Source of the DNA: an uncultured Maricaulis sp.
GTDB taxonomy: Bacteria > Pseudomonadota > Alphaproteobacteria > Caulobacterales > Maricaulaceae
DNA length: 64,000 bases
Reading direction: 5' to 3'
Assembly: GCA_965242785.1 (NCBI GenBank)
Contig: CBDETA010000001.1
Location: 79,444 to 143,443 of the forward strand
Below are positions 1 through 3,644 of the stretch, piece by piece. The notes beneath the pieces are model-generated. The model was not told where the DNA came from, did not search any database, and saw only the letters and a program-made list of their open reading frames with translations. A program made the translations under genes and the position numbers. Positions within the stretch are counted from its first letter, which is position 1. Each line of letters starts with the position of its first letter.

Positions 1-274
1 GGCCGCCGTGATGGCGCTGTTTTCCCATCCGGTCGGCGTGTTGACGGGGTGGGTGCATTTCCTGGTGTTTGATCTTTTTGTCGGAGCCTGGATTGCGCGG
101 GATGCGGCCCGTTGCGGCCTGTCCCGATGGGCCGTGCTGCCGGCCCTGATCTTCACGCTGATGTTCGGCCCTCTGGGCCTGACCATCTACCTGCTCACAC
201 GCCGGATGGCCGGTCGGGGTGGCTGGTCGCTGGAGGAAGGCTCCCGCACCCCCGTTTTGGGTCCGCAGCGGTGA
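1..274 (+). CDS. ABA4-like/DUF4281 membrane protein (5'-truncated by window edge)
   Basis: GWVHFLVFDLFVGAWIARDA motif plus PxLxxTxMFGPxG, typical of the ABA4/DUF4281 family. Confidence 0.7.
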   Translation, partial: AAVMALFSHPVGVLTGWVHFLVFDLFVGAWIARDAARCGLSRWAVLPALIFTLMFGPLGLTIYLLTRRMAGRGGWSLEEGSRTPVLGPQR

Positions 275-295: not shown

Positions 296-1507
296 CTACC
301 CCTTCACGCACACCACCTGCTTGAGGGTGTGAACCACCTCGACCAGGTCGGACTGGGCCGCCATGACAGCATCGATGTCCTTGTAGGCCTTCGGCGTCTC
401 ATCGATGACACCGGCATCCTTGCGGCATTCCACACCCTGCGTCGCGTCACGGTGGTCGGCCAGGGTGAAACGGCGCTTGGCCTCGGACCGCGACATCGTC
501 CGCCCGGCCCCATGGGAGCACGAGCAGAAGCTGTCGGCTGATCCCTTGCCGCGCACGATGAAGGACTTGGCGCCCATCGAGCCGGGAATGATCCCCAGCT
601 CGCCCTCGCGGGCCGATACCGCACCCTTCCGGGTGACCCAGACCTTGGCACCGAAGTGATGTTCCTGCTCCACGTAATTGTGGTGGCAGTTCACCGCCGC
701 CTTCTCGGTCTTGAACCGGCCCAGCGTGGTCCGCAGCGCGCCCAGGACGCGCTCCATCATCACCTCCCGGTTCTCCCGGGCATAGTCCTGCGCCCAGGAC
801 ACGGCCTCGACATAATCGTCGAACAGGGGCTCGCCCTCCAGGAAGAAGGCCAGGTCCCTGTCCGGTACATGATAGTCCAGCACCCGGCGGGCCAGCGCAT
901 TGCGCGCCAGCTCGATGAAATAGGTGCCGATCATGTTGCCGGTGCCGCGCGAGCCGGAATGCAGCATCACCCACACCCGGTCCGCCTCATCCAGACACAG
1001 CTCGATGAAGTGGTTGCCGCCACCCAGCGTGCCCAGCTGACCGTCCACCTTGTGTGTGCCGATCTTCTTGTGCTTGGCCTTGATGACATCCAGCCGGTCC
1101 ATCAGGCCGGACGCCCGCAGGCGGGTATCCACCAGCGCCGGCTTGATGCGGTGGTCTCCCACCTTGCCATTGCCGACCGGGATGGCCTTCTCGATCGCGT
1201 CTCGCGTCGCCTTCAGGCTGTCCGGCAGGTGCCGGGCCTCCAGGCTGGTGCGGATCGCCATCATGCCACAACCCAGATCGACGCCGACGGCGGCGGGAAT
1301 GATCGCGCCCTTGGTCGGGATCACCGAGCCGACCGTGGCCCCGCGTCCGAAATGGACGTCGGGCATGGCCGCGATGTGGCTGTGGATGAAGGGCAGGCCG
1401 GCGACATTGCGCAATTGCTGCACAGCGGCGTCCTCGACCGGCACGCCCTTGATCCACGCCTTGATCAGGCCGGATTGCGTCTCGATGGCTTCAAACTGGG
1501 TACGCAT
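296..1507 (-). CDS. rtcB: RtcB family RNA-splicing/repair ligase (403 aa)
   Basis: MPDVHxGxG, VGVDLGCGM, GTLGGGNHFIE, HSGSRG, CHHNYV and SHGAGR motifs; start taken at the ATG (MRTQFE) after AGGAAGAG. Confidence 0.95.
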   Translation of the reverse strand: MRTQFEAIETQSGLIKAWIKGVPVEDAAVQQLRNVAGLPFIHSHIAAMPDVHFGRGATVGSVIPTKGAIIPAAVGVDLGCGMMAIRTSLEARHLPDSLKATRDAIEKAIPVGNGKVGDHRIKPALVDTRLRASGLMDRLDVIKAKHKKIGTHKVDGQLGTLGGGNHFIELCLDEADRVWVMLHSGSRGTGNMIGTYFIELARNALARRVLDYHVPDRDLAFFLEGEPLFDDYVEAVSWAQDYARENREVMMERVLGALRTTLGRFKTEKAAVNCHHNYVEQEHHFGAKVWVTRKGAVSAREGELGIIPGSMGAKSFIVRGKGSADSFCSCSHGAGRTMSRSEAKRRFTLADHRDATQGVECRKDAGVIDETPKAYKDIDAVMAAQSDLVEVVHTLKQVVCVKG

Positions 1508-1662
1508 GGTCTCTTCCTGCGCTTGCGGGCGCAGGCCTTTCTTCTTTCCGGGTTCTGAGTTCGAACGGGTTGCCAATTGGGAGGGTGCGTGTTGGGCGCA
1601 CGCACCCTCCCGGGGCATATCGATCCGGCGGCCATTTGGGGGAAGGGCGGCTGGCCGGAACG

Positions 1663-1694
1663 AAAAAACCCTCCTCGAGCGATGCTCGGGAGGG
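1663..1694 (-). terminator. Intrinsic terminator in the rtcB leader
   Basis: Minus strand reads CCCUCC-CGAGC-AUC-GCUCG-A-GGAGGG followed by UUUUUU. Confidence 0.8.
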
Positions 1695-1721
1695 CTGGTC
1701 ACCGGGACTGTGTCGGGCAGT

Positions 1722-1814
1722 CTACCGGGTGATCGCGAAACCCTCCGCGCGCGCAAAGCCAGCCGGCCAGAAGGCCGTGCCGTCGAGGCGATATGTACGC
1801 TGTACTGGGTTCAT
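1722..1814 (-). CDS. Putative rtcB leader peptide, 30 aa (MNPVQRTYRLDGTAFWPAGFARAEGFAITR)
   Basis: ATG..TAG ORF read by hand; codons 24-30 overlap the 5' arm of an antiterminator hairpin. Confidence 0.6.
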   Translation of the reverse strand: MNPVQRTYRLDGTAFWPAGFARAEGFAITR

Positions 1815-1877
1815 CCTGTACGCCTGTCGTCTCTGTTTGCGCGCCCGGTTAGGGGCGTGTGGTTGATCGGGAGGCGG

Positions 1878-1907
1878 CTTATGGAATGGCTGGTTACCGC
1901 TTTCAAG
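1878..1907 (-). promoter_or_regulatory. Candidate promoter for the rtcB leader (RpoH/RpoD-like)
   Basis: Minus strand CTTGAAA-N17-CATAAG, about 65 nt upstream of the leader ATG. Confidence 0.45.
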
Positions 1908-2045: not shown

Positions 2046-3644
2046 ATGTCCGTCGCCGATCTTGCCCAAAACGCGAAAGCCTGGCCGTTTGAACAAGCGC
2101 GCCTGCTGAAAAAGCGTCTGGACAAGATGGGCCGAAAATCCGGGCCGGTCGTGTTCGAGACCGGCTATGGCCCGTCGGGCCTTCCGCACATGGGGACATT
2201 CGGTGAGGTCGTGCGCACCACGATGGTGCTGCGCGCCTTTGATGCGCTGACCGGCGGGGCCTATGAGCCCAAGCTGATCTGTGTCTCAGACGACATGGAC
2301 GGCATGCGCAAGGTGCCCGACAACCTGCCGCAGCAGGACATGCTGGCCCAGCACCTGCAAAAGCCGCTGACCGAGGTGCCCGATCCCTTCGGCACGGCCG
2401 ACAGCTATGGCGCCCACATGAATGGCCGCCTGCGGGGTTTCCTGGACAGTTTCGGCTTCACCTACGAGTTCAAGTCCGCAACCGAGCTCTACCGGTCCGG
2501 CGCCTATGACGCGATGCTGTTGAAGGCGGCGGAAAAGTATGACGCCATCATGGATGTCATGCTGCCGACGCTGGGGGCAGAGCGCCAGGCGACCTATTCG
2601 CCCTTCCTGCCGATCTCGCCGAAGACCGGCCGCGTGCTCTACGTGCCGATGAAGGCGGTCGACGCGAAGGCCGGCACGATCACCTTTGATGACGAGGACG
2701 GAACCGAGACGACGCTGCCGGTCACCGGTGGCCGGGTGAAGCTTCAGTGGAAGCCGGATTTCGGCATGCGCTGGGCTGCGCTGGGCGTCGATTTCGAGAT
2801 GTTCGGCAAGGACCACCAGACCAATGCGCCGATCTATTCGAAAATCTGTCGCATCCTGGGCGCCGAACCGCCGACGCAGTTTGTCTACGAGCTCTTCCTG
2901 GACAAGGAAGGCGAGAAGATTTCCAAGTCCAAGGGCAATGGCCTGTCGGTCGAGGAATGGCTGACCTACGCGCCGCCGCAATCGCTCGCCTACTATAATT
3001 TCGTCAAGCCGAAGACGGCCAAGCGGCTGTATTTCGACGTCATCCCGAAGGCGGTGGACGAGTACATGCAGCACCTGGCCGCTTATCACGGCCAGGAGCC
3101 GGCACAGCAGCTGGAGAATCCGGCCTGGCACATCCATGACGGCCGTCCGCCGCAGGATGCCTCGCCGATCTCCTTTGCCCTGTTGCTCAACCTCGCCTCG
3201 GCGGCTTCGGCCCACAATACCGATGTGATGTGGGGTTTCATCGGCCGTTATGTCGATGGCGCGACGCCTGAAACGCATCCGCTGCTGGACCAGCTGGCCG
3301 GTTTCGCCGTCCAGTACTTCCAGGATTTCGTCAAGCCGACCAAGTCCTTCCGCGCGCCCAGCGAGATGGAGGCTGCGGCCATGCAGGACCTGCTGGCGCG
3401 TCTCAAGGCGATGGATCCGGCCGAGCGCGATGCCGGCAAGATCCAGGACGAGGTCTTCGCCGCCGGCAAGACCCAGCCGTTTGAGAATCTGCGCAACTGG
3501 TTCCAGGCGCTCTATGAAGTCCTGCTGGGCCAGTCCCAGGGGCCGCGCTTCGGCAGTTTCGTGGCGATCTACGGCGTGACGGAGACGATCGCCCTGATCG
3601 AGAAGGGGCTGGCGGGGGAGTTGCTGAAACCTGACGCGCAATGA
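2046..3644 (+). CDS. lysS: Class I lysine--tRNA ligase
   Basis: [15 protein letters not shown] (HIGH-like), KISKSKGN (KMSKS-like) and QGPRFGSF motifs. Confidence 0.95.

Follow-up and report, generated by a model that had tools for sequence, protein, structure and literature searches.

How is the gene of the RNA-repair ligase RtcB controlled where neither rtcR nor rtcA accompanies it? The question is raised by a stretch of 64,000 nt from an uncultured Maricaulis sp. (assembly GCA_965242785.1, contig CBDETA010000001.1, positions 79,444 to 143,443 of the forward strand), here called the window, which carries rtcB on its minus strand; both rtcR and rtcA are absent from the whole 64 kb. A promoter, a leader open reading frame (ORF), a GGAGGG box and an intrinsic terminator lie about 160 nt upstream of rtcB, also on the minus strand. 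An earlier, sequence-only reading of this DNA had proposed that these parts form a leader-peptide attenuator acting on rtcB instead of RtcR/sigma-54, and this proposal is supported by comparative and transcript evidence. We put the probability that the element is a ribosome-dependent (leader-peptide) transcription attenuator controlling rtcB at roughly 0.7. The support comes from the parts themselves, their conservation and covariation, co-transcription with rtcB and the excess of leader RNA in homologues.

The leader unit and its conservation upstream of rtcB

All parts named in the sequence-only reading are found in the window where it had placed them. The promoter-like CTTGAAA (1907-1901)-N17-CATAAG (1883-1878) is present and conserved across the family, and transcripts of a close homologue start at the predicted +1. 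The 30-codon leader ORF (1814-1722) and the 9-bp stem 1844-1836/1757-1749 are likewise present on the minus strand. Box GGAGGGUUU does lie at 1746-1738; it spans codons 23-26, starting on the last base of codon 23, and not codons 24-26 as had been stated. The terminator at 1694-1663, CCCUCC-CGAGC-AUC-GCUCG-A-GGAGGG-U6, has a predicted energy of -18.8 kcal/mol and is unique: the pattern CCCTCC-N6-26-GGAGGGTTTT occurs a single time in the 64-kb window, and shuffles give 0 expected. A simple terminator scan missed it because the stem has a bulge, and a simple sigma-70 scan missed the promoter because CATAAG is without the final T. The region also forms stronger folds than its shuffles, with z = -3.6 for 1655-1860 and z = -6.05 for 1500-1910.

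The same unit accompanies rtcB in many other bacteria. Our comparison is based on 160 loci encoding close RtcB relatives, taken from genomes and metagenomes and phylogenetically related to each other. Terminators with the same arms (CCCUCC...GGAGGG, then U's) lie 60-345 nt upstream of rtcB and on the same strand in Maricaulis, Hirschia, Henriciella, Hyphomonas, Ponticaulis and other Hyphomonadaceae, in Terricaulis-like metagenome-assembled genomes, in Caulobacter, Brevundimonas and Micropepsaceae, and in a few other Alphaproteobacteria. By a relaxed pattern the leader unit is present in at least 70 of 145 loci. A divergent rtcR is found in 16 of these 145, and its overlap with the leader unit is 0 (Fisher p = 1.4e-5, not corrected for phylogeny); rtcA is never found beside a leader-bearing rtcB. 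Among Maricaulis genomes the upstream neighbour gene varies and the leader unit stays with rtcB. The outer six pairs of the terminator are almost invariant, and its inner stem and loop vary freely. Such invariant outer arms are unusual for a plain gene-end terminator and are as expected if the arms have other pairing partners.

Promoters of the family follow the consensus TTGAC[GC]-N17-[CT]AnA[AC][GA]. Of 56 distinct leaders, 24 have the motif ahead of their ORF, and none has it in the spacer from terminator to rtcB. A separate promoter downstream of the terminator, a possibility raised in the sequence-only reading, is thus not seen, as no promoter-like motif lies there in any of the 56. Two other promoter types were considered and rejected: a sigma-54 candidate before rtcB (TGGCA-N-TTCGA, ~1574-1560) has no -12 GC and is not conserved in L001-L003, and a sigma-32-type reading of the leader promoter, CTTGAAA-N14-TTCCATAA, conflicts with the other members, which have no CCCCAT-like -10 and fit TTGACG-N17-TAnAAG.

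Each clade carries a leader ORF of 24-38 codons, which is preceded by a Shine-Dalgarno-like site and ends 3-25 nt after a GGAGG-type box. Among 46 distinct leaders, 45 contain an ATG/GTG ORF of 22-45 codons ending 20-50 nt before the terminator, where dinucleotide shuffles predict 8.9, and the 46th has a TTG start. The distance from stop codon to terminator, counted to the start of the folded stem, is fixed per clade: Caulobacter has 23 nt, most leaders of the Maricaulis, Terricaulis and Micropepsaceae types have 27-29 nt, the MKRRYENQ subgroup has 32-35 nt and the Hyphomonas type 39-47 nt. Over codons 2-10 the ratio of nonsynonymous to synonymous change (pN/pS) in frame is 0.18 (MKRRYENQ subgroup), 0.44 (Maricaulis) and 0.35 (Caulobacter), against mostly 0.6-1.7 out of frame (1.0-1.1 in Maricaulis). 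To judge from these ratios, purifying selection acts on codons 2-10 in frame only. The whole-ORF pN/pS is 0.7-1.0; most of the peptide therefore appears free to change, as in other leader peptides, and it matches no Pfam, NCBIfam or PDB family.

Pairing states of the leader RNA

Covariation supports the structure that contains the terminator. In six Maricaulis-type sequences, 91.8% of its cells are paired, compared with 37-45% when the partners are slid, and 25 pairs are changed on both sides against 4-9 in the slid controls; 0 of 500 shuffles match this. The covarying helices are the intra-ORF hairpin (both-side changes in five of nine pairs), a small hairpin presenting the box, the stop-codon hairpin (three pairs, e.g. 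CGG/CCG to CAG/CUG), the inner stem of the terminator and the hairpins 1661-1622 and 1611-1579. Covarying helices placed right after the terminator, as the last two are, imply functional transcripts that pass it.

A long-range helix links the 5' untranslated region (5' UTR) to the 3' end of the ORF, with its core in the window at 1844-1836/1757-1749. In a swap test on Hyphomonas-type leaders, each 5' UTR paired with its own ORF end at -16.5 kcal/mol and with those of relatives at -13.5 kcal/mol (p = 5e-5), and compensations such as AUUCAGCAAC/GUUGCUGGAU against AUCCACUCA/UGAGUGGAU are present. The swap tests replaced RNAalifold on a reduced alignment (5' UTR plus ORF end), which found no structure, the register of pairing being different from one sequence to the next. 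In the window, the pairing of the upstream strand (segment 1 in Table 1) is seen in the minimum-energy fold, with compensatory changes by eye in L002, L003 and L082. Conserved GCCUCCC (1875-1869) was rejected as an RNA pairing box: contig 5' ends of the close homologue L081 place +1 at or after this sequence, which is therefore mostly promoter DNA.

The sequence-only reading had also claimed an alternative to the terminator. When the terminator 3' arm is left out, the minimum-energy fold indeed pairs GGAGGGUU (1746-1739) with AGCCCUCC (1696-1689) around the stop-codon hairpin, at -25.5 kcal/mol. To these two states our analysis adds a third, in which the GGAGGG box (1746-1741), whose partner is otherwise 1694-1689, pairs with 1854-1847. 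Folding of the growing chain from the predicted +1 of the window visits all three: the box pairs with 1854-1847 once made (P = 0.97), shifts to the terminator 5' arm as this arm emerges (P = 0.53-0.95), and returns upstream when the 3' arm is complete and the terminator forms (P = 0.99). In these models the window pairings follow the 1:2, 2:3 and 3:4 logic of classical attenuators and are mutually exclusive.

Relatives preserve the match between box and arm. In 40 of 52 leaders, the best complement of the terminator 5' arm is found in the last 30 nt before the leader stop codon. In a box-arm swap test with 36 representatives, own pairs reach -18.6 kcal/mol and swapped pairs -17.1 kcal/mol (p = 3.4e-4; an earlier version with narrow windows had given p = 0.04, before the windows were widened and Caulobacteraceae included). 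The box also tracks clade-specific changes of the arm, in L098, L036, L046, L127 and Caulobacteraceae. In L044, arm CCCCUUCC and box GGAAGGGG are a Watson-Crick match, and the terminator 3' arm keeps GGGAGGGG and pairs by G-U wobble. For the MKRRYENQ subgroup the RNAalifold consensus picks the antiterminator, and a simple model of this subgroup puts the terminator probability at 0.97 when there is no ribosome; with a ribosome, it is about 0.01 for A-site positions up to codon 17 and 0.99 once the A site has reached codon 19.

From these pairings a working scheme can be proposed (coordinates of the segments are given in Table 1). The sigma-70-type promoter would yield an RNA starting at about 1871-1868, with the 30-codon ORF and four alternating segments. 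If no ribosome loads, 1:2 would form first and 3:4 next, and transcription would stop at about 1663. A ribosome keeping level with the polymerase would cover segment 2 and the stop-codon hairpin while segments 3 and 4 are made; 2:3 would be blocked and termination would again result. A delay of the leading ribosome within the first ~18 codons would leave segment 2 bare as segment 3 emerges; the 2:3 antiterminator could then form, and the polymerase would pass three more hairpins and reach rtcB. In this way, translation that slows or fails would induce the RNA ligase that mends broken tRNA and rRNA. We infer the polarity of the response (stalling giving read-through), its limit before about codon 20, the stalling site and the natural inducer.

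Table 1. Positions of the leader element and of rtcB in the window
Feature	Position	Strand	Basis and remarks
-35 hexamer TTGAAA	1901..1906	minus	Direct reading; within CTTGAAA 1907-1901
-10 hexamer CATAAG	1878..1883	minus	Direct reading; 17 nt from -35; identical in L001, L081, L003 and L087
Predicted transcription start	1868..1871	minus	Homology to L081 contig starts (C1871, G1868); predicted for the window itself
Segment 1	1836..1857	minus	C-rich; 5' strand of the long-range stem, core GCGCGCAAA 1844-1836, plus C-rich 1854-1847 pairing with the GGAGGG box
Leader ORF, MNPVQRTYRLDGTAFWPAGFARAEGFAITR	1722..1814	minus	30 codons, ATG 1814, stop TAG 1724-1722
Tyr-Arg codons UAU CGC, codons 8-9	1788..1793	minus	Candidate stalling site; putative function
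Intra-ORF hairpin	1752..1790	minus	1782-1773 with 1768-1760; outer pairs 1790-1788 with 1754-1752; RNAalifold and pair counts
Segment 2	1733..1757	minus	Long-range stem 3' strand UUUGCGCGC 1757-1749 plus GGAGGG box 1746-1741
Stop-codon hairpin	1699..1732	minus	UAG (1724-1722): U and A bulged, G paired
Intrinsic terminator	1663..1694	minus	5' arm CCCUCCCGAGC 1694-1684 (segment 3, CCCUCC...), loop 1683-1681, 3' arm GCUCGAGGAGGG 1680-1669, U6 1668-1663 (segment 4, ...GGAGGG plus U6, 1680-1663)
Post-U-tract hairpin GUUCCGGC/GCCGGAUC	1622..1661	minus	C-rich loop CUUCCCCC; begins right after the U-tract; 4 pairs changed on both sides
Perfect 13-bp hairpin GGGAGGGUGCGUG/CACGCACCCUCCC, GGGAGGG.../...CCCUCCC	1579..1611	minus	rtcB 5' UTR; inverted repeat; 3 pairs changed on both sides
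Purine-rich GGAAAGAAGAAAGG, then hairpin CCUGCGC/GCGCAGG	1516..1549	minus	Adjoins the rtcB start codon; direct reading; possibly a split ribosome-binding site
rtcB, regulated gene, canonical	296..1507	minus	ATG 1507, stop 296, 403 codons plus stop; PF01139 and E. coli similarity

The three conserved hairpins between the terminator and rtcB had no place in the sequence-only reading. The one beside the start codon is retained with differing sequences in L001, L002, L003 and L082, and the hairpins of 1661-1516 as a whole may add a layer of translational control. In L005, L007, L010, L012-L014 and other Hyphomonadaceae, a third copy of GCGCGGAGGG is found ~40-60 nt past the terminator and before the rtcB ribosome-binding site. 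This copy complements the terminator 5' arm CCCUCCGCGC perfectly and could sequester or release the ribosome-binding site in read-through RNA. The spacer between terminator and rtcB is hypervariable in two other loci: L021 has tandem heptamer repeats, (CTGACTA)n then (CTCACTA)n, and L024 a long imperfect inverted repeat of AGAAATCAG-like units.

Two further observations concern variants of the unit. In L014, L017, L020, L023, L090 and L091 the long-range helix has UGGAUCAACCUCCUUUC as its 5' strand, located ~20-35 nt ahead of the leader ATG; this strand pairs with the GGAGG box and with the post-stop GGUCCAAG. It resembles the anti-Shine-Dalgarno region at the 3' end of 16S rRNA of Alphaproteobacteria, from which one inserted A would set it apart, and the resemblance may be coincidence or mimicry. 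Terricaulis-like loci have an extra ~90-codon ORF between terminator and rtcB (L022, 2701-2979; also L027, L047, L093 and L096), with the leader remaining at the 5' end of the operon. This ORF has no family in Pfam, NCBIfam or PDB, and may encode an RtcB partner under the same control.

Transcripts of homologues and competing explanations

Transcript evidence comes from assembled contigs of marine metatranscriptomes for two homologues of the window strain's locus, L081 and L087. For the window's own strain, a search of sequencing runs gave no usable RNA; four of the runs are DNA with flat depth. L081 is the closest relative and shares the architecture of the window. Its contigs begin at 1125 and 1128, 7 and 10 nt past the same CATAAG (C1871 and G1868 in the window), and its leader ORF follows 40-60 nt after the transcript start. 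In four runs the depth of the leader is 2-7 times that of rtcB (leader against rtcB contigs: 66.6 vs 11.9/18.7; 71 vs 10/10.7; 12.8 vs 2.4/5.4; 4.2 vs 2.2), and a fifth run contains the leader only. L087 is of the Hyphomonas type (TTGACA-N17-CATAAG, leader ATG 1266, terminator 1395-1427, rtcB ATG 1498). In eight runs no contig covers 1072-1252, contigs start at 1253-1265, and single contigs span leader, terminator and rtcB, e.g. 1253-2814. Consequently, in these homologues leader and rtcB share a promoter upstream of the leader, and read-through transcripts exist.

Some contig ends recur. Three runs have L081 leader contigs with their end at 1351/1352, where a C-run closes 27 nt beyond the U-tract, and L087 contigs of three runs share the start base 1253. 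Processing could explain such ends, as could limits of coverage or breaks in assembly at polymorphic runs.

Several observations weigh against attenuation by the leader peptide. In the window, equilibrium folding prefers the terminator for nearly all ribosome positions modelled (0.39-0.99), so any read-through would have to be a kinetic decision. The sequence-only reading had looked to conservation of both the upstream ORF and the alternative pairing before rtcB: the ORF is conserved, and so is the pairing across the family, but inside the Maricaulis clade only 75% of the antiterminator helix is paired, its covariation is uninformative, and there the helix is no more than possible. Minimum-energy folds up to the terminator 5' arm, a noisy method, show the antiterminator for no more than about one homologue in three. 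Segment 1 precedes the leader ORF and is not inside it as in trp-type attenuators, so that the layout offers a stalled ribosome no evident way to keep segment 2 free. As to the transcripts, L081 leader contigs extend 27-90 nt past the U-tract, where assembled contigs cannot reveal a 3' end, and in L087 some runs are about equally deep on either side of the terminator, while in one the relation is reversed. The L087 contigs moreover start at 1253, 11 nt after the predicted +1, which would remove the 5' strand of the long-range helix. Finally, the relatedness of the loci makes counts and p-values overstate independence.

A different kind of sensor deserves consideration first. The leader could be a terminator whose action depends not on translation but on an effector bound by its conserved hairpins, such as a metabolite, a protein, damaged tRNA or RNA ends, with the ORF secondary or incidental. 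Many helices covary, the stop-codon hairpin and a C-rich loop are conserved at the nucleotide level, the pN/pS of the whole ORF leaves most of the peptide unconserved, and the C-terminal residues of the leader follow the needs of RNA pairing. On the other hand, the ORF with its start, Shine-Dalgarno-like site and fixed stop is found far beyond expectation, and in-frame purifying selection is apparent on its codons 2-10; the hairpins are variable and without a conserved core resembling a ligand pocket, and the four-segment layout requires no ligand. Searches with Rfam 15 covariance models gave nothing relevant in 1300-2200 at E up to 10, and no match at gathering score in the whole window or in the leaders of 10 diverse loci. 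We regard such a sensor as unlikely. A tRNA-like or Y-RNA-like partner of RtcB was also considered and rejected, as Rfam and ARAGORN scans gave nothing relevant.

It is very unlikely, in our judgement, that the leader is a separate small gene, specifying the 30-residue protein and/or a trans-acting small RNA of ~205 nt, which ends in an ordinary terminator and neighbours rtcB through shared function. That the terminator is strong and that leader RNA lies far above rtcB RNA in L081 would suit such a gene, and trans-acting attenuator RNAs and leader peptides of Alphaproteobacteria are known, in outline, from systems such as S. meliloti rnTrpL/peTrpL (PMC7298713). However, single contigs join leader and rtcB in L087, no promoter motif lies past the terminator, the helices right after the U-tract covary, and the peptide sequence is poorly conserved; invariant arms with a matching box in the ORF would be needless for an ordinary gene-end terminator. 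The leader could still have a trans role besides its cis control.

Least probable, with hardly a chance of being the whole explanation, is a terminator that serves as a constitutive leaky dampener while rtcB is controlled translationally through the hairpins of 1661-1516 holding or presenting its ribosome-binding site: the three conserved covarying hairpins after the terminator (one beside the start codon, with a purine-rich stretch before it), the third GCGCGGAGGG copy of Hyphomonas-type loci and the common read-through RNA of L087 fit it, but the conserved ORF, its fixed stop position and the matching box are left unexplained, and such control is compatible with attenuation and so may be an added layer, not a rival.

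If the leader-peptide attenuator is accepted, the next question is what its early codons report. UAU-CGN (Tyr-Arg, with the third base of the Arg codon varying) recurs in Maricaulis, Terricaulis-like, Micropepsaceae and Hyphomonas-type leaders. At residues 2-12, Asn, Tyr and Lys exceed their background frequency 3.4-4.9 times, Arg is frequent, and codons 2-14 favour the rarer A/U-ending synonyms (AAA 78% vs 17% in rtcB; AAU 65% vs 28%). The stalling site is possibly the conserved Tyr-Arg pair together with other rare A/U-ending codons. Rare-codon enrichment was rejected as proof of regulatory codons, since it is confounded by the general A/U-richness of gene starts. The simple form of a queuosine-tRNA idea (Tyr, His, Asn, Asp) is ruled out by the depletion of His and Asp in the leaders.

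These early codons, namely the Asn, Tyr and Lys codons, the conserved UAU-CGN (or K-R-R-Y-E-N-Q in one subgroup) and the rarer A/U-ending synonyms, allow speculation that the leader is a codon-specific sensor of damaged tRNAs and not a general gauge of translation speed, which we consider a tentative and rather unlikely refinement. Anticodon nucleases cut tRNAs for the same amino acids: colicin E5 those for Tyr and Asn, colicin D those for Arg, and PrrC that for Lys. If the idea is right, cleavage of those tRNAs would stall the leader ribosome and turn on the ligase that reseals them, a substrate-matched feedback within the mRNA.

Relation to known systems and significance

The regulated gene encodes a canonical RtcB. 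Pfam RtcB PF01139 covers residues 31-403 over its full length (427 bits), identity with E. coli RtcB is 54% over residues 2-365 and 83% over residues 369-403, and solved RtcB structures match the protein with E = 1e-24 to 1e-32. The scores for the ArmZ-type PRK09588 (188 bits, cut-off 407) and for the PrfH-linked family (158 bits, cut-off 272) are under both curated cut-offs, which places the protein in the canonical type. No prfH follows rtcB; the next ORF, on the opposite strand, is an ABA4-like membrane protein gene (8-274, plus strand), truncated by the window edge. On the other side, rtcB is separated by 540 nt of non-coding DNA from a gene for a class I lysyl-tRNA synthetase (2046-3644, plus strand), transcribed away from the leader promoter; the 160-nt stretch 1884-2045 is common to both promoters.

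The closest functional parallel is PA5471.1 of P. aeruginosa, a 13-codon leader that lies ~250 bp upstream of armZ (PA5471)-prfH (PA5470) and is transcribed from a constitutive promoter. Its full translation lets a 3:4 terminator form, and stalling, caused by antibiotics or by suhB, cca, fmt or folD defects, gives read-through into armZ and prfH (PMC3516279, PMC12057347, PMC13041342). The link between failing translation and an RtcB-family gene, which the sequence-only reading had offered as new, was thus already published for PA5471.1-armZ (PMC3516279, PMC13041342). Both systems combine a short leader ORF, a terminator and a regulated RtcB-family gene, with the response to ribosome stalling proposed here for rtcB. 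Leaders of rtcB have 24-38 codons instead of 13. ArmZ, a member of the PRK09588 cluster, has the release-factor homologue PrfH as its partner and is an anti-repressor of MexZ, whereas the window gene is a canonical RtcB without prfH. By analogy, the rtcB leader would work like the PA5471.1 system without being a member of it; the two are set apart by RtcB subfamily, by the absence of prfH from the window and by leader length and layout.

The attenuators of trp, his, leu, thr and pheA share with the rtcB leader a promoter-proximal leader ORF and the 1:2, 2:3 and 3:4 pairings. In those attenuators, the position of the stop codon lets a terminating ribosome block 2:3, and absence of translation leads to termination; the rtcB leader would behave alike. 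Unlike these amino-acid attenuators, the rtcB leader has no run of codons for one amino acid, its segment 1 precedes the start codon and does not lie under regulatory codons, its segments are boxes resembling Shine-Dalgarno and anti-Shine-Dalgarno sequences (GGAGG/CCUCC), and an RNA ligase is regulated instead of a biosynthetic operon.

Antibiotic-sensing leaders are a further parallel. Published outlines of B. subtilis bmrCD and vmlR and of E. coli toiL (topAI-yjhQ) describe stalling on an upstream ORF that relieves premature termination (PMC4191407, PMC9226507, PMC12121999); the likeness lies in a short upstream ORF reporting general translation stress. As these outlines present them, resistance or toxin-antitoxin genes are controlled there, and none is tied to RNA repair. 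According to the abstract of the cited work, toiL also differs in being Rho-dependent and not based on an intrinsic terminator.

In E. coli and Salmonella, rtcBA is regulated by RtcR/sigma-54 and induced by damage to the translation apparatus (PMC5175333, PMC7790460). The same enzyme is regulated in both cases, but the RtcR system relies on a CARF-domain activator that binds cyclic-phosphate-ended tRNA fragments, a sigma-54 promoter and the partner rtcA, and none of these parts is present in the window or in any leader-bearing locus. The leader probably replaces RtcR/sigma-54 control of rtcB. Four loci have neither leader nor rtcR (L029, L033, L049 and L100; Lysobacter/Arenimonas-like and others) and carry an ORF that ends ~50 nt before rtcB, with the C-terminus ...KRQLxARELxxxxL...; this suggests a third type of gene context.

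Our literature search found no published description of the rtcB leader element. With at least 70 members, good covariation and no Rfam entry, this undescribed RNA element should be useful for annotation, and, in bacteria of marine and freshwater habitats, it could act as a natural reporter of translation stress. Conservation of RtcB extends from bacteria to humans, and in bacteria the regulation of the enzyme is understood mainly via RtcR, which many species bearing RtcB lack. Together with PA5471.1-armZ, the leader suggests that the coupling of RtcB-family genes to ribosome stalling is a recurrent solution. If the early codons match particular tRNAs, the element would link the repair enzyme to its own substrates. 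In a large block of Alphaproteobacteria without RtcR, rtcB would need no protein sensor, since a leader ORF would report the state of translation to the gene directly.

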